From Patescibacteria group bacterium (GTDB lineage Bacteria; Patescibacteriota; Dojkabacteria; J137): a DNA stretch of 64,000 nucleotides. The DNA lies in contig BOLA01000001.1 of NCBI GenBank assembly GCA_016861265.1, forward strand, positions 11,569 through 75,568, read 5' to 3'. Positions 771 to 61,563 of the stretch are shown here, one piece after another. The position numbers and the translations under genes were made by a program. Positions within the stretch are counted from its first letter, which is position 1, and each line of letters begins with the position of its first letter. The notes below the pieces were generated by a model. That model ran no database searches. It was not told the DNA's origin and worked only from the letters and a program-made list of their open reading frames with translations.

Positions 771-1241
771 TTAACTATTCCCTAAACAAAATTTTGCAAT
801 ATTATTGCGTTTAAAATAGTCTTTAAGAACCAATGAACCTAGGAATAATGAGAATTTTTCTTCATTGAAATGATATTTTATTCTAACGTTATCATGAATA
901 GTTTTGTTAAGCTTATCTAGATATTCTTCCCATTTCTTAAATTCTATATCCTGTTCTTCTGAGTTATTCTTCAAGTTAAACCAAGGAAATTTCTTATCAG
1001 CAATTTTTCTATTTTCTGTAACCAATCTTGTATAAGATGAAGACAGCTTTAATAGTTTTACGAAGGGAAAAGTATTTATATAAATAAAAAATGTCAAAAA
1101 TCCCAAGATAATCGCAACAAGAATAATTTGATATTGTGTTAAAACAATCTTATTAGCTTCTAATACTGGTGATATTAATACTAATTCTACTGAACCGACT
1201 AGAAAACATTTAAGACTTGTTGTATTAAATTTAAGGACCAT
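771..1241 (-). CDS. hypothetical membrane protein (156 aa)
   Basis: ORF track. Two predicted TM segments near the N-terminus. Codirectional and tightly spaced with neighbours. Confidence 0.45.
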   Translation of the reverse strand: MVLKFNTTSLKCFLVGSVELVLISPVLEANKIVLTQYQIILVAIILGFLTFFIYINTFPFVKLLKLSSSYTRLVTENRKIADKKFPWFNLKNNSEEQDIEFKKWEEYLDKLNKTIHDNVRIKYHFNEEKFSLFLGSLVLKDYFKRNNIAKFCLGNS

Positions 1242-1245
1242 ATAT

Positions 1246-1986
1246 TTATGATTGTTTTTTTAGCTTTTTTACTTCTGCAGCTGTTAAGTACCGCCACTGA
1301 CCAACTTTAATTCCATCCTTGGTTAAATCGGCAAATTTAACTCTATCTAACTTTTGTACAACATAGCCTACATGCTCAAATATTCTTCTTACTATTCTAT
1401 TTCTTCCACTGTGGATTTGAATAGAAACTATTGCCTTATTGTTTCTATCTACATAATTTAATTTATCAGGAGTAATCGTACAGTCTTCAAGTCTAACTCC
1501 GCCTAAGATTTTGTTAAATTTTTCTTCTGTTAGAGGTTTGTTTAAAATAGCAACATAAGTTTTCCTAACCTCGTATTTGGGGTGAGCTAATCTTTGGGTT
1601 AAATCACCATCGTTTGTTAGTAGCAGTACTCCCGTAGTTTCGTAGTCTAGTCTTCCTACAGGGTAGACCTTTTCCTTTGTAGCTTTTTTTATTAAATCGG
1701 TCACTTTCTTTCGCTTTTCAGGATCGTTTGTAGTAGTAATAACGTTAACAGGCTTGTTCAAAAGAATGTAAACATGCTCTGTTTTAGGTCTCATAGCTCT
1801 GCCGTTTACTGCAACTCTATCGGTGGTTTCCACCCTAACGCCTGGCTCTGTAATCTTAATTCCATTTACCGTTACTCTGCCCTGTTTTACTAGTTCTGCT
1901 GCATCTCTTCTTGAACAGTATCCGGAGTGAGAAATAAACTTATTTAAAGGCATTCCATCTAATTTTGTTTCTGCTATTTTGTTCAT
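1246..1986 (-). CDS. pseudouridine synthase, RsuA/RluB family (S4 domain + PseudoU_synth_2)
   Basis: 246 aa. N-terminal S4 RNA-binding motif (LNKFISHSGYCSRRDAAELVKQGRVTVNG). Catalytic region (PVGRLDYETTGVLLLTNDGDL) has the RLD...G motif with catalytic Asp. Confidence 0.85.
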   Translation of the reverse strand: MNKIAETKLDGMPLNKFISHSGYCSRRDAAELVKQGRVTVNGIKITEPGVRVETTDRVAVNGRAMRPKTEHVYILLNKPVNVITTTNDPEKRKKVTDLIKKATKEKVYPVGRLDYETTGVLLLTNDGDLTQRLAHPKYEVRKTYVAILNKPLTEEKFNKILGGVRLEDCTITPDKLNYVDRNNKAIVSIQIHSGRNRIVRRIFEHVGYVVQKLDRVKFADLTKDGIKVGQWRYLTAAEVKKLKKQS

Positions 1987-2420
1987 TATTTTAAAGATTC
2001 CTTATAATCAATAAGAATTTTAAGGGACATTGGTGTTAGTTTGTTAGGTTCATTTAATATATTGTCTAACCTATCAAATACTATAGAGCTTCCTTCGTGC
2101 AGCACAAGTTTTCTGTCATCAATGTCTTTAATTATGTAAATATGTATAGTTTTATCTCGACCATCTTTGTCTAGTGTAAGTTTGTAGGTTTTGAAAAATT
2201 CAACCTGAGCACCCTTAAATACAAGTTCAAGTTCTTCAAATAATTCTCTTCTTAATCCACTCCACTTAGTTTCACCTTGCTTTAATGAACCCCCAAATAG
2301 TCCTATTTTCCCTGGAGAAAGTATATTAGGATTATTGTCTCTTTGTTGGAGAATCAATTCGTTATATCTAGAAAGTAGAATAGCGTTTACAGCTTCTTTT
2401 GTTTCTTCAGCTTCGATCAT
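1986..2420 (-). CDS. NUDIX hydrolase
   Basis: 144 aa. Nudix box GGSLKQGETKWSGLRRELFEELEL fits Gx5Ex7REUxEExGU. One-base overlap with upstream start. Confidence 0.8.
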   Translation of the reverse strand: MIEAEETKEAVNAILLSRYNELILQQRDNNPNILSPGKIGLFGGSLKQGETKWSGLRRELFEELELVFKGAQVEFFKTYKLTLDKDGRDKTIHIYIIKDIDDRKLVLHEGSSIVFDRLDNILNEPNKLTPMSLKILIDYKESLK

Positions 2421-2428
2421 ATTTAAAA

Positions 2429-2499
2429 TGGAGATAAGGAGAATCGAACTCCTGCCCCACCCATGCCATGGGTGTATTCTACCGCTGAACTATATCCCC
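2429..2499 (-). tRNA. tRNA-Ala (anticodon GGC)
   Basis: rc is GGGGATATAGTTCAGCGGTAGAATACACCCATGGCATGGGTGGGGCAGGAGTTCGATTCTCCTTATCTCCA. It folds as a cloverleaf with a 7-bp acceptor stem carrying G3:U70 (the Ala identity element). Anticodon stem is CACCC/GGGTG, loop ATGGCAT, anticodon GGC. T-arm is AGGAG-TTCGATT-CTCCT. CCA is not encoded. Confidence 0.85.
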
Positions 2500-2517
2500 T
2501 TAAAATTAATATAGAGA

Positions 2518-2523
2518 TTATAA
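2518..2523 (-). promoter_or_regulatory. candidate -10 box (TATAAT) about 18 nt upstream of tRNA-Ala
   Basis: The minus strand reads ...AAAAGCCTAAAAAGCCTTATAATCTCTATATTAATTTTAAG then the tRNA. Perfect TATAAT hexamer. The -35 is unclear because the background is AT-rich. Confidence 0.3.
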
Positions 2524-2549
2524 GGCTTTTTAGGCTTTTATTATAGAGA

Positions 2550-3197
2550 TTACTTAAAGTTTATTGATTTAACAAAATCCTCGAATTTTGTTACTGCTGC
2601 CATATTACCTTGTTTTTCAGCAATTGGGAAAATGCCCGATCCAACACATACCCCACTCTTAATACAGCCATAAACCTGTGTAGTTAAGGCCTGATCTGCT
2701 AATATGTCGCCATTCTCGTTAACTACATTTAAATAGGAGTATTTTAAAGAAACAGTTCCTGAAGCTCCATCAATTTGCTTAATCTCAGTATTTGAAGTTG
2801 TTATACCTACATCGGCAATAGGTTCAAATGAAGTAGATAAGTAATAAGTATCTTGTCCATCAGTAATTGCGTTTATTATGCATGCAGACGTAGATGAATT
2901 AACATCACCGCATTTAATGCCAGAGACCGACTTTGTTTGCATGATTGTATTCACAATATAACTATCGTTAAATGTTAATACCGAATCGGAGAGCTTAACT
3001 TCCTTTAGATTCTCTACAGGAAAAACGGTAATTCCTGCAGCTTCGGATGATTCCGGATAAGAAGCCGTATTAGTATCAAAGTTTAAATTGTTGGAGTTAC
3101 CCTTTTGAGTTAAAAGATATATAACTCCTAAAATAATAACCAGTAATATTACTACTGGAATTCCTATCTTTTTTATATTTATTAAATTTGTATTCAT
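2550..3197 (-). CDS. hypothetical secreted/membrane-anchored protein (215 aa)
   Basis: N-terminal TM/signal segment (IGIPVVILLVIILGVIYLL). Ser/Thr-rich ectodomain with several Cys. No family recognised. Confidence 0.5.
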   Translation of the reverse strand: MNTNLINIKKIGIPVVILLVIILGVIYLLTQKGNSNNLNFDTNTASYPESSEAAGITVFPVENLKEVKLSDSVLTFNDSYIVNTIMQTKSVSGIKCGDVNSSTSACIINAITDGQDTYYLSTSFEPIADVGITTSNTEIKQIDGASGTVSLKYSYLNVVNENGDILADQALTTQVYGCIKSGVCVGSGIFPIAEKQGNMAAVTKFEDFVKSINFK

Positions 3198-3258
3198 ATT
3201 TAAAGTATATTTAATTTAACAAATCATGTAAATAAATCTTAATGATATACTAGCGTAT

Positions 3259-3777
3259 ATGGAAAGTTTTACAATAGCTGAAGCCAATATAAATGATTTT
3301 AACTCTGTTAAGAATCTAATGTTAAAGGCTCTACAAACTGATCCCACTGCTTTTAGTTCTGACCATTCGGATTATGCTAACAATTCAGATTCATGGTGGC
3401 AAAACTATTTGTATGGTTATTTAAATCAGTTTTACTCAAAATTATTTTTAGCAAAACAGGATAATAAAGTAATTGGTATGGTGGGCATTCTATTGGATAG
3501 CAAGAATAGAAGGAAACATGTTGCATCCGTAGTATGGTTTTATATAGATCCTGAATATAGAAAATTCGGATTGGGGCGAGAATTATTAAAGAATCTAATT
3601 GAATTTGCTAAGACAAATAAAGCTATAAAAAAACTAACTTTACTGGTTAACGCACCACAACACAAGGCAATAGCAATATATAAAGAGTTCGGATTTAGCA
3701 TTTCTGGTACTTTGCAGAAGGAATTATTAATTAATAATGAATTTATTGATGAATATATTATGGAATTGTTTTTATGA
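3259..3777 (+). CDS. GNAT family N-acetyltransferase
   Basis: 172 aa. Acetyl-CoA binding motif A region (VASVVWFYIDPEYRKFGLGRELLKNLIEFAK) fits the GNAT R/QxxGxG/A pattern. Stop overlaps the next start (ATGA). Confidence 0.75.
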   Translation: MESFTIAEANINDFNSVKNLMLKALQTDPTAFSSDHSDYANNSDSWWQNYLYGYLNQFYSKLFLAKQDNKVIGMVGILLDSKNRRKHVASVVWFYIDPEYRKFGLGRELLKNLIEFAKTNKAIKKLTLLVNAPQHKAIAIYKEFGFSISGTLQKELLINNEFIDEYIMELFL

Positions 3778-4709
3778 ACAAGACGATTGGCGATAGATTA
3801 AAAGAAAAAAGACTTAAACTTGGTTATTCAATTGAAAAAGTCTCTAATGAACTGAAGATTAGACCTGAATTTATAAAAGCATTGGAATCAGATAATTATT
3901 CGGTTTTCTCATCAGATTTATATGCCAAGGGATTTATTAAGAATTATTCCAAATACTTAGAATTAGACCCTGAAAACTTTAGTGCAGTATATAGAAGGGA
4001 CATACAAAGTAATAAACTCCAAGTAAAGAAGTTTAATAATACTAATAGCACTGAAAATGTAAAAAAAACATTTTCCTTTAGCAGACGCAATTTTAAGTTT
4101 GTACTATTATTTTGCTTTATTCTAGTTGTCGGGGTTATAGTTTTATCCATCCTGAATAAAACCTTTGAGCCTCCCGTACTGGAGCTGACTTCGCCAGTAA
4201 CATTAAGTGCCGGGACTACTACATCTTCCGATTATTACGATAAAACTGTTAGACTCATTGGATTAACTTCAACGAATACAGTTATAAAGGTCAATGGCGT
4301 AGTTTTACCTACAAAAACAGATAATACATTTGAGAGTGAGTTATATGCGGTAACTCAAGAATCAAATAAATTTGTAATTGAGGCGATTAGTAATGTGAAT
4401 GTTATTAGCAGAATAGACTTAACCCTAAATAAAAGAAATTCATTTATTGAAGAGAGTCAGGGCATTACAGGAGCTATTCAAATAATTAAGGACAATTCCT
4501 TAATTAAAGTTATTGTTGACGACAAAGAAGTTGTTAATGGTATTTATTTTGAAAATGACTCTATTCCCATTATTGGCGAAACTAATGTAAGCATACAGGC
4601 AGATAAACCTGACAATATAAAAATAGTTTTAAATGGTGAGGAATTTAAAATTACAGAACAAATTTTAAAAATTGGACTTACTAATGGTAGACTAATAGAA
4701 GTAAATTAG
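3774..4709 (+). CDS. RodZ-like protein (XRE-type HTH + single TM + extracytoplasmic domain)
   Basis: N-terminus GDRLKEKRLKLGYSIEKVSNELKIRPEFIKALESDNYSVFSSDLYAKGFIKNYSKYLELD matches the RodZ HTH_25 signature. It is followed by a basic stretch and a TM helix (FVLLFCFILVVGVIVLSIL). Confidence 0.65.
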   Translation: MNKTIGDRLKEKRLKLGYSIEKVSNELKIRPEFIKALESDNYSVFSSDLYAKGFIKNYSKYLELDPENFSAVYRRDIQSNKLQVKKFNNTNSTENVKKTFSFSRRNFKFVLLFCFILVVGVIVLSILNKTFEPPVLELTSPVTLSAGTTTSSDYYDKTVRLIGLTSTNTVIKVNGVVLPTKTDNTFESELYAVTQESNKFVIEAISNVNVISRIDLTLNKRNSFIEESQGITGAIQIIKDNSLIKVIVDDKEVVNGIYFENDSIPIIGETNVSIQADKPDNIKIVLNGEEFKITEQILKIGLTNGRLIEVN

Positions 4710-4725
4710 CTTTTAAATTTTCCAT

Positions 4726-5823
4726 ATGAGTGTAATTCTTGACGAATTCTACGTACCTCAAGATTTGAGTATTCTTGACGTTTTAAAAGAAAGTCCAGAC
4801 GCCAGGGAAATTTATCAGCTAACTTTGAGAGATTTCCTGGAAGATATTAGATCGATATTAGAATTAATTAGATCTCCAATTGAGGAAATTTCAATTAAGT
4901 TTGAAGATGTAAAAAGGTACTTAGAAACTCAAGATCCTACACTTGCTAATAGTACAGGAGAATTTCAACAATTAGTTTCAAAGAAAAAAAATGAACTCGA
5001 ACCTATTTTTGACAGATTATCTCAGAATTCTGTTAGAAGCTTTTCTGGATATAATTTGAACCGTGATCAAGAGATCAAATTAAGAAATTATTTATCAAGC
5101 TTTAGGAGCAGAATGGTATCGATGATAACTCATAGACTAAGAACACCTTATGCTGTATTAGGAACAAGTTCATACCTAATTGACAAAATATTAAGCTTGC
5201 AGCCAGATAACTTTAATGACTCAAGGCTTATGGGCAAGACCCAAGTGATTAGTTCGGCGCTTGGTGAATATCAAGAAATATTTGTTGAAATTGAAAAGTT
5301 TTACAATATTTGTTTTGGATTAGATAGAAATAGTGTAAATGTAGAATGGGTTCCATCTGAAAATTTACCTTACTTATTTCTAGATTTACTTGACGAGCCA
5401 ACTTTCCAAGGTTTGAACCTATCGGTTAACAACGAAAGTGAGGCTACAGGTATTAAAATTGATGTAGAGCATATTAAAGAAGCAGTAAGACAAATACTAA
5501 TTAACTCAATTGATTTTTCTAATAGAGGTTCCGATTTAGCAATCTTAGTTAATATAAGAACAGTAAATCAGGAACAAAAAAGATTAGTTATCGAAATTAC
5601 GGACAATGGGGCAGGTATAAAACCCCAAGAATTACAAAATGTCTTTGAGCCATTTTATACACAAGATATGGTAGGTATAGATTTTGCAAATCTACCGGGT
5701 ACAGGTTGTGGTCTAGGACTATCAATTGCTAAAGGGTTAGTAGAAAGGTATGGAGAGATAGGTATTTCAAGTGTTCTAAATCAAGGAACAACTGTTGTAT
5801 TAGATTTTAAAGCTAGGGACTAG
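4726..5823 (+). CDS. cytoplasmic sensor histidine kinase-like protein (HisKA + HATPase_c), no TM
   Basis: H-box-like MITHRLRTPYAVL. G1 box ITDNGAGI. G2 box GTGCGLGLSIAKG. No hydrophobic segments. Stop TAG abuts the dnaE ATG (TAGATG). Confidence 0.7.
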   Translation: MSVILDEFYVPQDLSILDVLKESPDAREIYQLTLRDFLEDIRSILELIRSPIEEISIKFEDVKRYLETQDPTLANSTGEFQQLVSKKKNELEPIFDRLSQNSVRSFSGYNLNRDQEIKLRNYLSSFRSRMVSMITHRLRTPYAVLGTSSYLIDKILSLQPDNFNDSRLMGKTQVISSALGEYQEIFVEIEKFYNICFGLDRNSVNVEWVPSENLPYLFLDLLDEPTFQGLNLSVNNESEATGIKIDVEHIKEAVRQILINSIDFSNRGSDLAILVNIRTVNQEQKRLVIEITDNGAGIKPQELQNVFEPFYTQDMVGIDFANLPGTGCGLGLSIAKGLVERYGEIGISSVLNQGTTVVLDFKARD

Positions 5824-49438: not shown

Positions 49439-51427
49439 TTAAATGAATAAGCCTTCTTCGTCATCTTCCTCTCTCAAATCAATAATTCTTCTTGGTGCTT
49501 TTACCTCTTTGGTTAGTAATGTTGAGTCTAATTCTTTAATTTTTGCTAATGCTTCTTCTGTTGTGGTACATACATTAACAAAGCTTAAATCAGTATCTGA
49601 TAATTTAAACATATTTTTTAGCTGACTAAGAATAGCTGTCCACCCCTTACCTAATAAAATAATTGGCTTATTTTGACCAGGGTACATACTGCTAGTAGAC
49701 CAAACTTCGAATAGAATACCTAGATTATTCAATCCAAAAACTTCTGGCATTATCAACAGATCGGATTCTTTAATAATATTTTTAATTTTATCTGCAGTAT
49801 TTGAGAACATCATTACAGTAAAATTATCGTAGTCACCTAGATCAGCTTCGTCTGAATATTCTGAATGAAATGGCTTTAGATACATTCCAGTAAGATCAAT
49901 TCCTCTTTCCTTAGCACTTTCAAAGACACTCTTAGCATATCCTTTTGCTGAATCAATAATAAATACTTCTGAAAACTCAGAAAGTCTCTTAGAAAGTTCA
50001 GTAATTTTTTCAACAACTTTAGAATTTGGTTGAGAATTTAGACCAATAAAACCTACAGTTTTAAAATAGGACATTTCAAAGTTAATTGGGGTAACTGTTG
50101 CCGTTGGAGCTGCTTCAGCTGCAGCCTCTGCTGCAGGAATTACAACTGGATTTTCATTAGCCTCAATTAAAGTTGCTGCCTGCTCTGTTACTGTTTCTGA
50201 AACATTTTCTACAGTAGTAGGTACAGGCATATTTAGGTCCGTTGTAGTTATAGGCTCAGCTGAGATTTCTTCAACACTTTGATTTGTGGAATCTAATTCA
50301 TCCATTAATGGTGGTGCAACTTGCATTCCTGTCTCAAACGTAGGAACGGAAGGCATTTGCTCTGCAGAAACTGAATTTTCAGCTGAAGCTGTAACTTCTG
50401 TATTGTTTTCCGGCCCGTTCACTTCTGCAACTGACTGCATTGTATCGGTCTGAGAATTCTGTTCAGATGGCAAGGTAGACTCTCCAACACCAATTTCTAA
50501 TCCAGATAAATTATTAGTAGTCTCAGGTTCGGTTTTTACCTCTTCTGTAACTACATTGTTTTGTATTTCTGTAACCGGAAGTTCCGCATTATTTGTCGTG
50601 CTATTAAGTCCATTTACTTCTGTTGTAGTATTAGTCATTGAATTTTCAGTTGGAATATCTAAAGACTGTGTATTTGTTTCTAGTGGTTCTACGGGAAGAG
50701 TTCCAACAAGACTGTTAGAACTCATTTGTGAATCAATTGAATTATTTGAAAAGTTATTAATTACTTCTGGCTGAGGCTCATTAATAATTGAATTTGCAGT
50801 GTCTTGATCGGGTACAGGTAAATTGTTCTGCTCTCCTGTTGGGTTCTGAACATCTGTAGTTGGCTCCACCTGTGTATTATCTGCTTCTTCAGAAACAGTT
50901 TGTTCTGGTGCATTAGTTACAGGTTCAAATGTTGTAACTTTAATGCCTTCAGGCATTGTCTCTGTATGACCTTGATGAGGCTTAACTTCTGGTAAAACAG
51001 GATGTTTACTTGGATCAACATACTCGTAAGAAGGAACGTCCTTTTCTTCGGTTTGAGTCGGTTGTGTGGCCTGTGGCATTTGCAAATCAGGTACCGTAGG
51101 TGTATTAACAGTAGGCATATTCGTTGCTGCCATATCCATAACTGGTGCAGGTGCTACGGCATTCTGTGGCTCCATGGAAGGTACTGCCAAATTCTGTAAT
51201 CCAGGATATTGCTGGGCTTGATCCTGAGTTACATTAGCCTGTGGCACTATAGGTGCAGGATTAGTTGCATAAGGCGATGGATTAGCCATCGGGTAAGAAA
51301 CATTCGCCAAAGATTGGTTAGTATAACTTTGCTGAATGCTTGCGAAATCAGGTACGGCAGGTGGATTAACGTTATCTCCTTGTGGATTCGTTGTTCCGCC
51401 TTTTTGGAAAAAGTCTAGCAATCCCAT
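49439..51427 (-). CDS. protein with ~440-aa low-complexity N-terminal region and C-terminal degenerate LOG/YvdD-like Rossmann domain
   Basis: The C-terminal ~200 aa (VGFIGLNS...; DLLIMPEVFGLNNLGILFEVW...KPIILLGKGW) run parallel to the LOG family, but the PGGxGTxxE motif is not conserved. The N-terminus is Pro/Thr/Gln/Asn/Glu/Val-rich with no TM. Acidic tail REEDDEEGLFI. Confidence 0.5.
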   Translation of the reverse strand: MGLLDFFQKGGTTNPQGDNVNPPAVPDFASIQQSYTNQSLANVSYPMANPSPYATNPAPIVPQANVTQDQAQQYPGLQNLAVPSMEPQNAVAPAPVMDMAATNMPTVNTPTVPDLQMPQATQPTQTEEKDVPSYEYVDPSKHPVLPEVKPHQGHTETMPEGIKVTTFEPVTNAPEQTVSEEADNTQVEPTTDVQNPTGEQNNLPVPDQDTANSIINEPQPEVINNFSNNSIDSQMSSNSLVGTLPVEPLETNTQSLDIPTENSMTNTTTEVNGLNSTTNNAELPVTEIQNNVVTEEVKTEPETTNNLSGLEIGVGESTLPSEQNSQTDTMQSVAEVNGPENNTEVTASAENSVSAEQMPSVPTFETGMQVAPPLMDELDSTNQSVEEISAEPITTTDLNMPVPTTVENVSETVTEQAATLIEANENPVVIPAAEAAAEAAPTATVTPINFEMSYFKTVGFIGLNSQPNSKVVEKITELSKRLSEFSEVFIIDSAKGYAKSVFESAKERGIDLTGMYLKPFHSEYSDEADLGDYDNFTVMMFSNTADKIKNIIKESDLLIMPEVFGLNNLGILFEVWSTSSMYPGQNKPIILLGKGWTAILSQLKNMFKLSDTDLSFVNVCTTTEEALAKIKELDSTLLTKEVKAPRRIIDLREEDDEEGLFI

Positions 51428-57543: not shown

Positions 57544-58842
57544 TTATGGTTTACTTAATACTGTTGTTCGTGGGAATGGAATTGTTTCTCTAATGTGGTG
57601 TACTCCACTAATCCATCTTACTGTTCTTTCTAATCCAATTCCAAATCCAGAGTGCTCAACTGAACCATACTTTCTGATATTTAAATACCACTCATAATCT
57701 TCTACCTTATAGTTTCTAGCTTTTAATTCAGTTAGTAACTTTTCATAGTCGTCTTCTCTTTGAGATCCGCCAATAATTTCTCTTGCTTCTTCTGGTGCAA
57801 TTAAGTCTGCATTTATAGCTCTCTTCATTCCTCTTTCGTCTACGTAGTTCTTCATATAGAATGCTTTTACCTCGAATGGATAATCTTCTATAAATACAGG
57901 AATTCCAAAGTGATTACCGATTGCAATTTCTTCTTCTGTCGTCATGTCGTCGTTGTAGTCAACTTTAAAGCCTTGTTCTTCTAAAAGTTTTTTAGCATCG
58001 TATTGCTTCATTCTAATAAACTTCTCGTCTACAGCTCTTTGCAAAACAGTTGTGTCTCTTTCCAGAACTTTTAATTCCTCTTTACAGTTTTCTAGACAAT
58101 CCTTAATAATTCTCTTTACCAATCCTTCCTGAACATCTTCGTTCATTTGCTGATTATGGTAAGCCATTTCTGCATCCATCATCCAGAATTCAGACAAGTG
58201 GTTTCTTGTTTTACTCTTTTCTGCTCTAAATACAGGTCCAAAGTCATAAGCTTTGCCTAGTCCCATAATGCCTGCCTCTAAGTACAATTGACCTGACTGA
58301 GTCAAATACATTTTGCTTTCGTAGTAATCCATTTCGAATAATTGCGATGTATCTTCCGCACTTGTTGGCTGTAATACTGGTGTATCGAATCTTACAAAGC
58401 CTTGTTCGTAAAAGTAGTTTGTAATTGATCTAAAAACTTGGTCTCTAATTCTTAAAACTGCCCATGGTGTTTTCGCTCTTAAATATAAGTCCCTGTTTTC
58501 GAATAAAAATTCTGGACCATGTTCTTTTTTACCGATAGGGAATTCAGGGGCAATATTTACAGCCTTAACTTCTTTAACTTGCAACTCAAAACCAGTTGGA
58601 CTTCTTGGTTCTTCTTTTAATAAACCTGTAATTATACAGCTTGATTCTATAGTTAAGTCCTGACTTGCCTGCCAGCTTTCTTCTGATACTGTTGCTTTTT
58701 CAACTACGCCCTGAATATAGCCGGAGCCATCTCTTAATTGCAAAAATGCAATCTTGCCTGAACTTCTTTTGTTGTACATCCATCCTTTTAAAGTGACTTC
58801 TTGATCAACAAAATCTTTTGATTTTGAAATTGTGTATTCCAT
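57544..58842 (-). CDS. asnS: asparaginyl-tRNA synthetase
   Basis: 432 aa. Class IIb motif 2 FRAEKSKTRNHLSEFWMMDAEMAY. Motif 3 region GSVEHSGFGIGLERTVRWISGVHHIRETIPFPR. N-terminal OB fold. Confidence 0.8.
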   Translation of the reverse strand: MEYTISKSKDFVDQEVTLKGWMYNKRSSGKIAFLQLRDGSGYIQGVVEKATVSEESWQASQDLTIESSCIITGLLKEEPRSPTGFELQVKEVKAVNIAPEFPIGKKEHGPEFLFENRDLYLRAKTPWAVLRIRDQVFRSITNYFYEQGFVRFDTPVLQPTSAEDTSQLFEMDYYESKMYLTQSGQLYLEAGIMGLGKAYDFGPVFRAEKSKTRNHLSEFWMMDAEMAYHNQQMNEDVQEGLVKRIIKDCLENCKEELKVLERDTTVLQRAVDEKFIRMKQYDAKKLLEEQGFKVDYNDDMTTEEEIAIGNHFGIPVFIEDYPFEVKAFYMKNYVDERGMKRAINADLIAPEEAREIIGGSQREDDYEKLLTELKARNYKVEDYEWYLNIRKYGSVEHSGFGIGLERTVRWISGVHHIRETIPFPRTTVLSKP

Positions 58843-58850
58843 ATAATAAT

Positions 58851-60179
58851 TTAAGGATTTAATCTTCTTGGATTTCTAAAAATAAACATAGATTCTCTAA
58901 TAGATTCTAAGCCTAACATCTTCATTAATAGTCTGCTTGGGCCCATACCTAAACCTCCATGAGGTGGCATTCCATATCTAAAGAAGTCTAAGTAGAATTG
59001 AATTAATTCTATGTTCATTCCTTTTTCTTTAGCCTGCTCTACTAGTTTTTCGTATCTGTGTTCTCTTTGTGCACCTGTTGTAATTTCAATTCCTTTGTAC
59101 ATTAAGTCAAAGCTCTTTGTTAATTTTTGATTATCTTCGTGTCGCATGTGGTAAAAAGGTCTTACCTCAATTGGATAATCTGTAACAAATACAAAGTCAT
59201 GATGTAATTCTGTTTCTACATAGTTACCAAGAGCTTTTTCTTCTTCACTGCTTAAGTCTCCTTCTTTTTCGGATTTTATTCCTATCTTAGCAAGAATAGT
59301 TTTTGCCTCTACCATAGTCATTTTAGGGAATGGTATAGTTGGAACCTTTAACTCAACACCCATAGTTTTTTTTATTTCTTCTCCATATTTTTCAACAACT
59401 TTCTGAATTGCAAATGCAATAAGCTTTTCTTCCTCAGCCATTACATCAAAATGAGAATCAATGTAACTTAATTCAGCATCGTAGCCAGTAAATTCAGTTG
59501 TATGTCTAATTGTATTTGAGTTTTCAGCTCTAAATACTGATCCAATTTCGAATACTCTCTCAAAGCCCGCAGCCATAGCCATTTGCTTATAAAACTGTGG
59601 CGATTGAGCCAAATATGCAGTTCTATCAAAGTATTTAACTTCAAATACTTCTGCGCCGGTTTCACTTGGAGCACCTAAAATCTTTGGAGTATGAATTTCC
59701 ATATAATTATTAGTGGTCCAATATTCAATCATTGCTCTTTCTAGCTCTGTCCAAACTTTAAATGTTAAAAGCTTTTCGGGTTTTCTAAGATCTAGCCATC
59801 TATAGTCCATTCTTGTGTCGGCTTCTGATTCGTTTTGTGCTTTTGCGTTAATTTGTAACGGTAGGCCTTCGGATTTACTTAAGATTTTGTATTCTTTAAC
59901 CTCAATTTCGAATGCACCTAATTGTTGATCAGCTTTTACAGCTTTCTCTGGTCTAGCCTTAACAAGACCAACAATTTCAATAACTGATTCCAGGGTTACA
60001 TCTCGCATATTTTCGCTGCCTTCCAAGTTATACGCAACGCATTGAACCTTACCCGTAATGTCTCTAAGATCAACAAAAGTCAATTTTGCACTTTGTTCTC
60101 TTTGGTTTTCGGCAAATCCAACTATTTTTACAGTTGAACCTACAAGGTTTGGTAGGTCTTTTAAATATGTTCTTTCCAT
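58851..60179 (-). CDS. aspS: aspartyl-tRNA synthetase, archaeal/type-2 form (possibly non-discriminating)
   Basis: 442 aa. FRAENSNTIRHTTEFTGYDAE. C-terminal RYGMPPHGGLGMGPSRLLM (the GMPPHGG hallmark of type-2 AspRS). No large insertion domain. Confidence 0.8.
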   Translation of the reverse strand: MERTYLKDLPNLVGSTVKIVGFAENQREQSAKLTFVDLRDITGKVQCVAYNLEGSENMRDVTLESVIEIVGLVKARPEKAVKADQQLGAFEIEVKEYKILSKSEGLPLQINAKAQNESEADTRMDYRWLDLRKPEKLLTFKVWTELERAMIEYWTTNNYMEIHTPKILGAPSETGAEVFEVKYFDRTAYLAQSPQFYKQMAMAAGFERVFEIGSVFRAENSNTIRHTTEFTGYDAELSYIDSHFDVMAEEEKLIAFAIQKVVEKYGEEIKKTMGVELKVPTIPFPKMTMVEAKTILAKIGIKSEKEGDLSSEEEKALGNYVETELHHDFVFVTDYPIEVRPFYHMRHEDNQKLTKSFDLMYKGIEITTGAQREHRYEKLVEQAKEKGMNIELIQFYLDFFRYGMPPHGGLGMGPSRLLMKMLGLESIRESMFIFRNPRRLNP

Positions 60180-60387
60180 AAATGTTTTTATATATAGTTA
60201 TTATTATAGTTAATTGTAATAGGTTTAAGATCCCATCGGGGATCGATAGTTCTATAATTACTGCCACGAAGACTTACAAAACCTAATGTAGACAGGCAAC
60301 AACAACAGCAGACTAAGAGAAGTACCAATAAAATAAATAGTTTTAATGCGTTTTTTCCTTCCATATATTACTCAGTTGAGTATAAAA

Positions 60388-60459
60388 CTGGGGAACTAGG
60401 ATTCGAACCTAGAACCTTCCCGTTAACAGCGGGCAGCTCTACCGTTGAGCTATTCCCCA
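60388..60459 (-). tRNA. tRNA-Asn (anticodon GUU)
   Basis: rc is TGGGGAATAGCTCAACGGTAGAGCTGCCCGCTGTTAACGGGAAGGTTCTAGGTTCGAATCCTAGTTCCCCAG. 7-bp acceptor stem TGGGGAA/TTCCCCA. D-stem GCTC/GAGC. Anticodon stem CCCG/CGGG, loop CTGTTAA. T-arm CTAGG-TTCGAAT-CCTAG. Discriminator G. Confidence 0.85.
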
Positions 60460-60486
60460 ATAATCAAATAATATTACTACAAAAGC

Positions 60487-60512
60487 TATAAAAAAACTCC
60501 CTTTTGGGAGTT
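60487..60512 (-). terminator. rho-independent terminator upstream of tRNA-Asn (would terminate a minus-strand transcript coming from the GC-rich element)
   Basis: Plus strand AAAAAAACTCCC-TTTT-GGGAGTTTCTTTTATTTT. On the minus strand the hairpin is followed by TTTTTTTAT. Confidence 0.5.
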
Positions 60513-60649
60513 TCTTTTATTTTATAGAAATAATAAGATAACTCCCTTATAGGCAGTAATTATCGTTATTATTATTGTTCAATTGTATTCTATTCATTTT
60601 GTTCTTTAAGTTGTATTGAGCGCGAAGTAAGTGAATAACCTCGCGCCCA

Positions 60650-60960
60650 ATGTGTTCCCTTGGCTCTCGCCTCGGGGGCTTTGTCCCCAGTCTTCTTCGA
60701 CCAGGAACCAGACTGAACGGACCGGATACCGTTGCAGGGTCGCTCTCTTGCGAGGAACGACCACTGCGGCCTTATGGGGTTATTGAATTATATAAACAAA
60801 AAAATATATACGCAACTGTTTTTTTTTATTTATGGCAAATATTTATTGAAGGTGGTAAAAGTTGGAGGCTAGCTCAAGTGCAGCCGACCTCCAACCTTCG
60901 TCTAAGGTATTCCCCTAGACACTAACGGAACCCATCAGGTCATCTGTCTACACAGTACCA
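60650..60960. ncRNA. unclassified GC-rich structured RNA candidate (two GC-rich halves separated by an AT-rich/T9 segment)
   Basis: Local GC far above the ~32% background. Perfect nested hairpins: GGGG-GCTTTGT-CCCC; CAGTCT...AGACTG; AACGG-ACCGGATA-CCGTT; GCAG-GGTCG-CTC-TCTTGC-GAG-gaa-CGACC-a-CTGC; GTTGGAGG-N19-CCTCCAAC. The only ORF here (60650..60925) is Arg/Gly/Pro-rich, a typical artefact of GC-rich non-coding sequence. Not matched by eye to RNase P (no GGAAAGUCCGG or GGGUGAAA), tmRNA (no tRNA-like 3' end) or SRP consensus. Confidence 0.4.
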
Positions 60961-61074
60961 ATGGAGAATTCCGTACTCAAGCCGTATAAAAATGATCTTG
61001 AGTAAATAAATTATATTAGTATTAAATTAACTGCGCAATATTTAAATGTATAATAAAGTATTTAAATTAAAATT

Positions 61075-61563
61075 ATGGATAAAGGCAATATTATAGTTCA
61101 AAAAATTAAGAACTTACTGGAACAAAATAATGTAGACTATAGGTACATGGAACATGAGCCCACACCAACCAGTGAAGACGCCGCAAGGGTTAGAGGAACA
61201 AAACCGGAAGAAGGCGCTAAGGCAATAATTTTAAGAACTTCTAAAACTAATAAAAATGTAATGGTTGTTCTACCCGGAAATTTAAAAATAAACTCAAAGA
61301 ATGTAAAAAACTATATTGCAGAAGATATAAGTTTTGAGGATCCCAATATTATATTGCAGAAATTTGGATTAATAATAGGTGGTGTTCCACCATTTGCAAA
61401 TTTAATAGACAATCAAATTATTTTTTTAATAGATGAAAAGTTATTCTTAAATGAAAATATTTCGTTTAATTGCGGAAAAAAGACTGCATCAATTACAATG
61501 AATGCTAAAGAATATAAAACAATAATTGAAGAATATGCGACTGTAGGAAATTTCGCTAAATGA
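61075..61563 (+). CDS. ybaK: YbaK/ProX-family aminoacyl-tRNA deacylase
   Basis: 162 aa. ...GAKAIILRTSKTNKNVMVVLPGNLKINSKNV...GGVPPF matches YbaK-type trans-editing domain patterns. Confidence 0.7.
   Translation: MDKGNIIVQKIKNLLEQNNVDYRYMEHEPTPTSEDAARVRGTKPEEGAKAIILRTSKTNKNVMVVLPGNLKINSKNVKNYIAEDISFEDPNIILQKFGLIIGGVPPFANLIDNQIIFLIDEKLFLNENISFNCGKKTASITMNAKEYKTIIEEYATVGNFAK

Follow-up and report, generated by a model that had tools for sequence, protein, structure and literature searches.

A GC-rich structured RNA domain next to a putative asparagine leader-peptide attenuator in a Patescibacteria bacterium

Introduction

The closest described systems to the element reported here are the leader-peptide attenuators trpL, hisL, pheL, thrL and leuL, together with pheM of the pheST operon. 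We analyzed a 64,000-nucleotide (nt) stretch of DNA from a Patescibacteria group bacterium (Dojkabacteria; NCBI GenBank assembly GCA_016861265.1, contig BOLA01000001.1, positions 11,569 to 75,568), hereafter the window, in which a GC-rich, hairpin-dense island (60600-60990) adjoins a putative asparagine (Asn) attenuator upstream of the genes for tRNA-Asn and its charging enzymes. The attenuator resembles the known ones in having a short open reading frame (ORF) with a run of cognate codons, a stop codon beside segment 2, mutually exclusive 1:2, 2:3 and 3:4 hairpins, and an intrinsic terminator placed before genes that supply the sensed aminoacyl-tRNA. On sequence evidence, the traits that would be new for such an attenuator are its Asn specificity; a leader ORF without a Shine-Dalgarno (SD) sequence; a tRNA as the first regulated gene, followed by both tRNA-Asn charging enzymes; and, in this clade, a long structured 5' extension, a GC-rich domain of 170-290 nt that replaces the ~25-nt 5' end. 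Patescibacteria (also known as the Candidate Phyla Radiation, CPR) are not culturable alone and, to our knowledge, their regulatory RNAs are almost unexplored.

Leader peptides have also been described for aminoacyl-tRNA synthetase genes, as in the His leader peptides upstream of hisS in Bacilli (PMC2965389), but we found no description of an Asn leader peptide in the literature. Like T-box leaders (RF00230), the leader at this locus is long and structured and precedes, on the same strand, a terminator and aminoacyl-tRNA synthetase genes; unlike them, it has no T-box sequence in its antiterminator and no RF00230 match at E<=10, and its choice between terminator and antiterminator is predicted to be governed by a translated ORF instead of by tRNA binding. 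As with rnTrpL of Sinorhizobium meliloti (PMC7968998), a terminated attenuator leader could persist as a small structured RNA; rnTrpL has nothing that corresponds to the extra 5' domain. Finally, a long GC-rich intergenic region with stable hairpins and a tRNA gene nearby recalls the orphan GC-rich intergenic RNAs (PMC8632094, PMC11109978, PMC5737381; raiA, ROOL, HEARO, OLE), from which the island differs in being much less conserved in sequence, in being confined to a few related Patescibacteria lineages, and in matching none of them.

Results

A putative Asn attenuator precedes tRNA-Asn

We compared the window with contigs that encode an aspartyl-tRNA synthetase (AspRS) of graded identity to its own (designated by L numbers). 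Coordinates are those of the window, and features lie on the minus strand unless marked otherwise. Upstream of tRNA-Asn we found a leader ORF of 16 codons plus stop (MNRIQLNNNNNDNYCL*; 60547-60597, start at 60597), which contains five consecutive Asn codons, one Asp codon and then a sixth Asn codon. This ORF and the following ~110 nt form the best-conserved part of the intergenic region. An Asn/Asp-rich leader peptide is present in seven lineages (the window, L083, L084, L085, L094/L088, L089 and L071), the peptides of the relatives being MIKVKFDNNNSNYYL, MKNLKLSNNNNNDNYYL, MKTTKVNNNNNDNNCH, MNTKFDNNNNDNNCH, MKAILVDNNDNNLIS and METTRIILNDNNNQNRLPLALFA.

From the second half of the ORF onward, the sequence can adopt alternative structures. 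A 1:2 hairpin (60572-60530) carries the stop codon in its loop; an antiterminator (2:3, 60557-60496) pairs segment 2 (GGGAGUU...) with segment 3 (...AACUCCC); and an intrinsic terminator (3:4, 60517-60490), with a 12-bp stem followed by U7, uses segment 3 as its 5' arm. The initial annotation of this DNA had noticed a hairpin with a T-tract here and suggested that it marks the end of a minus-strand RNA. A terminator scan confirmed the terminator, but it is not simply the end of an RNA: it is the terminator of the predicted attenuator, and one stands between the ORF and the regulated genes in all homologues.

Folding with and without a masked ribosome footprint gave the states expected of an attenuator. 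Without a ribosome, the leader forms the 1:2 hairpin and the terminator; with a footprint on the Asn codons, the antiterminator forms; and with the footprint at the stop codon, the terminator forms. This behavior was obtained for the window, L083, L084, L085, L094 and L089, and was not reproduced by the same ribosome-masking folds in L071. In an alignment of seven sequences, the antiterminator was 85.4% paired, compared with 43-60% for slid controls, and none of 500 shuffles equaled it; five of its pairs were changed on both sides. The 1:2 hairpin and terminator were 82% paired, compared with 48-60% for slid controls. The locus combines a conserved tandem-codon ORF, a terminator, a mutually exclusive antiterminator and downstream genes that supply the sensed aminoacyl-tRNA. 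As modeled by these folds, it is a leader-peptide attenuator of the trp/his/pheST type, predicted to regulate by reading Asn-tRNA(Asn).

Between the terminator and tRNA-Asn lies a segment, CUUUUGUAGUAAUAU (60461-60489), that is invariant in six lineages. One possibility is a tRNA promoter (TGnTAGTAAT-like). Another is pairing with the leader codons AAUUACUGC, given that GUAGUAAU is complementary to AUUACUGC/AUUACUAC.

The GC-rich island probably consists of two units

The initial annotation described the island as a single RNA of ~310 nt, conspicuously GC-rich, containing at least five stems in two halves split by an AT-rich spacer, proposed to be read from the minus strand and devoid of a real coding ORF. 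Its account of composition, stems, strand and coding capacity agrees with what we found. The window has a GC content of 32.8% (standard deviation 5.5%; 120-nt windows over 64 kb), and its only non-coding segments of at least 48% GC are 60585-60807 (peak 62.5%) and 60844-60992 (peak 51.7%), which are also its two most GC-rich stretches. The spacer that separates the two halves (60782-60856) has 18% GC, includes the T9 run at 60819-60827 (an A9 tract on the minus strand, 60827-60819) and is unstructured on folding. Over the whole island, the minus strand has a minimum free energy (MFE) of -147 kcal/mol (z -7.15 against shuffles) and the plus strand one of -120.7 kcal/mol (z -3.1). Nine hairpins are predicted, four in the half farther from the leader ORF and five in the half next to it, and 14 of the 105 predicted pairs are G.U pairs that are valid on the minus strand only. 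The minus strand is better supported because both the fold z-scores and the G.U pairs favor it. A protein-coding island was rejected: six-frame translations across the homologues revealed no conserved ORF or shared peptide, and the stop-free stretches were inconsistent. As modeled, the island is a non-coding structured RNA from the minus strand that belongs to no described RNA family.

The single RNA is where we depart from the initial annotation. The island is probably two units, since the promoter from which relatives express the whole element has its orthologue in the AT-rich spacer. The pattern TTGC-N19-TATAAT occurs at exactly two sites in the 64 kb, both on the minus strand (expected number, 0.44). 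One is an upstream promoter-like site, TTGCGC-N17-TATAAT (61010-61038), and the other lies in the spacer (TTGCGT-N17-TATAAT, 60815-60787). L083, L085 and L094 each have a single consensus-like promoter, to which the spacer site and its start context (TATAATTCAATAACCCC) can be aligned; it reads TTGCATATAT..TTCATATAAT followed by N6-7 and AACUCAYC and then by 250-290 nt of GC-rich sequence. From this alignment, the spacer site appears to be the counterpart of the relatives' promoter. We refer to the two putative units as RNA1 and RNA2.

RNA1, the second GC-rich half (60857-61003), would start at ~61003 (ACUCAAG...), downstream of the upstream site. It is predicted to fold into hairpins at 61003-60975, 60974-60925, 60920-60900 and 60899-60857, with an MFE of -63.8 kcal/mol and a z-score of -6.1 on the minus strand, compared with -3.8 on the plus strand (61003-60854). 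Its last hairpin (GGUUGGAGG..CCUCCAAC) is followed by UUUU and is terminator-like. RNA1 is identical in L001 and L002, and showed no significant similarity to the island of any relative, either by blastn or by local alignment against shuffles. With its predicted ends, RNA1 is best explained as a separate, lineage-specific small transcription unit.

Two further ideas about RNA1 were tried and set aside. As a duplicate of the relatives' 5' domain, it shares with that domain only an 8-10-nt motif (GAUGGGUUCC) and a similar promoter, and we do not claim duplication because the local alignment is not above shuffles. As one half of a split RNA pairing in trans, it forms a duplex with RNA2 that is no better than shuffles, with a cofolding gain below 1 kcal.

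The two units could instead be free-standing, trans-acting small RNAs (sRNAs), RNA1 ending at its own hairpin and RNA2 being released by termination at the attenuator. Each has a consensus-like promoter, RNA1 has its terminator-like hairpin with U4 and a z-score of -6.1, the default state of the attenuator should release a stable RNA of ~300 nt, and rnTrpL of Sinorhizobium is a precedent for an attenuator-derived sRNA (PMC7968998). Among the homologues, however, no conserved single-stranded seed is apparent; RNA1 lacks a homologue, RNA1 and RNA2 form no specific duplex, and no target could be proposed. We regard an sRNA role as possible but unlikely.

RNA2 is a chain of hairpins joined to the Asn leader

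RNA2, the first GC-rich half (60612-60781), is predicted to be a chain of five hairpins: P1 (60767-60734), with a GCAA cap; P2' (60733-60716); P3 (60708-60683); P4 (60676-60657), which reads CCC-GA-GGC-GAGA-GCC-AA-GGG; and P5 (60651-60618). Its fold has a z-score of -5.8 on the minus strand, compared with -2.5 on the plus strand (60781-60612). An A-rich, SD-less linker (60598-60611) follows P5 directly and leads to the leader ORF. No terminator lies between RNA2 and the ORF, and an internal promoter directly 5' of the ORF is not consistent across lineages, with a good candidate in L085 only (TTGCAT-17-TAAAAT). Because no consistent promoter separates the domain from the ORF, the leader transcript most likely begins with the GC-rich domain.

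As the initial annotation would lead one to expect of a functional RNA, homologous segments exist in relatives. Homologues of RNA2 occur at the same position in L083, L084, L085, L094 and L097 and, when each was folded alone from its predicted start, they gave the same P1-P5 hairpin chain from largely different sequences. In L094, L084 and L083, the best non-self matches to a covariance model (R1) built from the window and L097 only lay at the orthologous position and on the corresponding strand (E 0.0015-0.0024). Local alignment against shuffles gave z-scores of 7.9 for RNA2 with L094 and 6.9 for L083 with L094. The only alignment-independent test of stem maintenance was the comparison of P3 between the window and L097, where six stem substitutions fall in five pairs, all are transitions, and pairing is kept via G.U. 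The evidence for compensatory change is favorable but sparse: five lineages carry hairpins at equivalent positions in differing sequence, the P3 substitutions keep pairing, and R1 recovers homologues at E ~0.002; MAFFT with RNAalifold on the full-length islands gave no usable consensus fold because the island sequences are too diverged.

The details of the chain vary. P2 ranges from 18 to ~100 nt across the homologues, L084 lacks P3, and there is one additional hairpin in L085. P4 has tandem G.A/A.A mismatches and a GNRA-like loop in the window and L094, and in L083 ordinary pairs take the place of the internal loop. The junctions contain a few recurring words: AACUCAYC/GAUGGGU, UCAGAC.GAUGCG and CCCGAGGCGAGA.GCC.AGGGAMC.

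These features bear on whether the GC-rich domain is a second sensor in series with the attenuator, a riboswitch-like, T-box-like tRNA-binding or synthetase-binding element that gates leader translation or elongation. A long structured leader before aminoacyl-tRNA synthetase genes, the recurring junction words, and the P4 mismatches with their GNRA-like loop would all suit such a sensor, and so would the fact that the attenuator defaults to termination when its leader is not translated. The architecture, however, is too variable for an aptamer in the size of P2, the loss of P3 in L084 and the additional hairpin of L085; the P4 internal loop gives way to ordinary pairs in L083; P3 is hypervariable even between strains; no T-box match was found at E<=10; and none of the predicted loops resembles the GUU or GUC anticodon loops that would mimic tRNA for AspRS or the asparaginyl-tRNA synthetase (AsnRS). 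A second sensor of this kind is quite unlikely.

Between the window and L097, P3 and its 5' flank (60683-60716, compared with L097:98-140) differ by ~10 substitutions and one indel within 42 nt; outside the P3 region the two are ~99% identical. Either gene conversion or local hypervariability could have produced the divergence of P3. In P1 (~60760), a 4-nt ATAA insertion is polymorphic, being present in L001 and L097.

The attenuator is older than the GC-rich domain

Relatives place the organism, by their AspRS, in Patescibacteria/CPR. L001 and L002 (AspRS 100% identical) are the same as the window except for the 4-nt insertion in L001; AspRS identity is 98% in L097, 86% in L083, 83% in L084, 80% in L085/L086 and 76% in L094, which belongs to the same species as L088. 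In L083, L085 and L094, a GC-rich element separates the ybaK-like gene from tRNA-Asn; in L084 and L097, whose contigs are cut, such an element is found upstream of tRNA-Asn. The order ybaK - GC-rich element - tRNA-Asn - aspS is kept wherever the contig reaches far enough (L097, L083, L084, L085/L086 and L094). The element is missing at this locus in relatives with AspRS identities of 73% or less, and the arrangement is lost at 69% or less. A synteny scan of genome contigs yielded mostly distant relatives without the element, and a metagenome pattern scan yielded two loci only.

Two of the distant relatives have the attenuator and no GC-rich element at it. In L089 (AspRS 68%; 2700-3000), the order is promoter, 7 nt, the AUG of MKAILVDNNDNNLIS*, hairpins, terminator, tRNA-Asn and aspS. 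In L071 (AspRS 50%; 540-800), a near-leaderless METTRIILNDNNNQNRLPLALFA* is followed by a terminator, tRNA-Asn and gatC-gatA-gatB-aspS (814-5305), an operon that comprises the whole indirect route to Asn-tRNA. The promoters of both lie 7-9 nt from the AUG. Since L089 and L071 run the attenuator without the island, the attenuator is the older and more widespread part. The comparison of these loci indicates that the GC-rich domain is a clade-specific accessory insertion between the promoter and the leader ORF.

A different situation is seen in L099 (AspRS 73%), which has an ORF-free region of ~900 nt upstream of tRNA-Asn and no attenuator. Within it, L099:336-705 is a hairpin-rich segment of ~370 nt whose ends form a perfect 15-nt inverted repeat (AAAACTGAGTGATAA / TTATCACTCAGTTTT); both strands of the segment fold with z-scores of about -6 to -7. 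We detected neither a relationship between this segment and the island nor any Rfam match to it. Separately, the contigs of L003, L084, L088 and L097 end inside or beside the GC-rich element or leader. That several independent assemblies end there suggests that strain variation or strong hairpins make the locus hard to assemble.

If the domain was inserted, it might be no more than a remnant of a GC-rich, palindromic and possibly mobile element at a tRNA-proximal hot spot, its hairpins being kept since misfolded inserts would disturb the attenuator. The lack of an island at the L089 and L071 attenuators, the unlike hairpin-rich segment with its 15-nt inverted repeat upstream of tRNA-Asn in L099, the localized burst of change in P3 between 98%-related strains, and the breaks of several assemblies at the locus are all in keeping with such an origin. 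Other observations are hard to reconcile with it. The island sits at one site, with its stems maintained, down to 76% AspRS identity, and a 13-nt match at 85% is the nearest it comes to terminal inverted repeats of its own. We found no second copy by blastn in the 64-kb window or the 98 fetched loci and no match in phage records, and on the same grounds a repeat family was rejected. Such a remnant is improbable.

The island matches no known RNA family

The initial annotation could not match the island by eye to RNase P, tmRNA, SRP, 6S or T-box elements, and left room for a divergent housekeeping RNA. At gathering thresholds, Rfam 15 identified three tRNAs only in the window. At E<=10, the region 60450-61080 contained no match to RNase P, tmRNA, SRP, 6S or T-box on the island. 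The matches that did appear were a chance-level one to Plastid-psbM (60725-60805, E 2.7); low-scoring ones to IS128 and SraG, which are anchored on the terminator and run into the island; and other weak ones in the AT-rich terminator region (60485-60560). Searches of L083, L084, L085, L088 and L099 returned tRNA only, raiA, ROOL, HEARO and OLE gave no match in Rfam 15, and ARAGORN found no tmRNA in the window. By eye, none of the RNase P CR-I/CR-V, T-box sequence, SRP domain IV motif, tmRNA ends or hammerhead CUGAUGA is conserved among the homologues. The antiterminator (GGGAGUU/AACUCCC) lacks the UGGN bulge of a T-box, and the 5'-3' end pairing and rod shape typical of 6S and RNase P RNAs are absent, the MFE and centroid folds of all homologues being chains of local hairpins.

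A highly divergent RNase P RNA, tmRNA, SRP RNA or 6S RNA would fit the size of the element (170-390 nt), its GC richness in an AT-rich genome, its strong promoter and its position beside a tRNA gene. Against this stand the absence of an Rfam match on the island at E<=10 in five lineages, the ARAGORN result, the lack of predicted end pairing or a rod, a turnover of sequence far faster than that of such RNAs, and the facts that the element is fused to a leader ORF, is found in a narrow clade only and is missing at the locus in relatives with AspRS identities of 73% or less. The housekeeping explanation is largely refuted and we consider it extremely unlikely. Together, the independent hairpin chain, the variable number and size of its hairpins, the few conserved nucleotides, the hypervariable hairpin and the restriction to one clade disfavor an aptamer, a ribozyme and a housekeeping RNA alike.

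Proposed mechanism and role of the GC-rich domain

We favor, as reasonably probable, an explanation in which RNA2 is the 5' domain of the leader transcript that carries the Asn attenuator, the role of the island is cis-acting, and RNA1 is a separate unit. Transcription would start at the spacer promoter, and the five self-contained, GC-rich hairpins would fold first. The transcript would then enter the SD-less 16-codon Asn ORF and the trp-type attenuator, with no terminator in between. When Asn-tRNA(Asn) is ample, the ribosome would reach the stop codon and cover segment 2, allowing the 60517-60490 terminator to form and yielding a short structured RNA of ~300 nt. When Asn-tRNA is scarce, the ribosome would stall on the Asn codons in segment 1, segments 2 and 3 would pair as the antiterminator, and read-through into tRNA-Asn, aspS(ND) and asnS would restore Asn-tRNA.

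Because the same attenuator is served by a near-leaderless promoter in relatives, the domain itself appears to be an accessory add-on. As a stable stack of hairpins, it could shield the 5' end of both the leader and the operon RNA, and could keep 170-290 extra nt from pairing with the AU-rich attenuator segments. Our best guess ranks this cis role as stabilizer or insulator first, followed by an sRNA, a second sensor and an old insertion, in that order.

Several observations weigh against this explanation. R1 misses the L085 island, and most of the pairwise sequence similarities do not exceed shuffles. The pairing in our helix table holds by construction, each sequence being represented by its own MFE fold; covariation statistics for the island are weak because there are only five or six homologues; and the 1:2 and terminator helices yield little covariation signal because they are almost invariant. 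The lack of a homologue deprives RNA1 of any comparative evidence for selection. The promoters, transcript ends and co-transcription that the mechanism requires are predictions. Finally, protection or insulation does not obviously explain why a streamlined 1.1-Mb genome would keep 170-290 nt, or why junction words such as GAUGGGU, UCAGAC and GGGAMCA are conserved.

A more far-reaching version would make the island a new class of accessory RNA domain, fused to a ribosome-mediated attenuator and serving as a second input, through which a synthetase, tRNA or metabolite, for example, gates translation of the Asn leader, with RNA1 as a detached, trans-acting copy. We give this version a small chance; if it were true, it would amount to dual-input control of Asn-tRNA supply in ultra-small bacteria, which was previously unknown. 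Should the favored cis-acting explanation be correct, the locus would be a sequence-level example of trp-style coupling of transcription and translation in a CPR bacterium without SD sequences. The physiological logic of the regulated set is clear: it comprises tRNA-Asn and both routes to Asn-tRNA, with gatCAB included in one relative. The island would be an orphan structured RNA added to a self-sufficient attenuator, and could show how extra domains are recruited onto regulatory leaders. If it turns out to do no more than stabilize, or to be an old insertion, the island on its own would be of modest interest.

Neighboring genes and additional observations

The first gene downstream of the attenuator is tRNA-Asn (GUU; 60387-60460). 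It is followed by aspS, encoding aspartate--tRNA(Asn) ligase, a non-discriminating (ND) AspRS (58851-60179), and asnS, encoding asparagine--tRNA ligase (57544-58842). Both were identified as NCBIfam equivalogs (475 bits against a cut-off of 353 and 487 bits against a cut-off of 414, respectively), as well as by Pfam. On the other flank of the island lies a tRNA_edit/YbaK-like gene (61075-61563, plus strand). The initial annotation named tRNA-Asn and ybaK as the neighbors of the island; both positions are correct, but the product of the latter gene scores below the NCBIfam YbaK cut-off.

A Cys-rich ORF of 58 amino acids (60188-60364) lies between tRNA-Asn and aspS. It has a hydrophobic N-terminus containing CCCCC and no Pfam match; a similar ORF is visible in L083, L084 and L003 and absent in L085 and L094. 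Elsewhere in the window, a third, weaker GC peak (~50%, 51040-51277) was observed. Its composition is probably that of coding sequence, because it falls inside a 662-aa ORF (49439-51427).

The sequences upstream of aspS (60170-60200), the ybaK-like gene (61060-61080) and the leader ORF (60598-60611) are A/U-rich. That all three lack an SD motif suggests SD-independent initiation in this organism.

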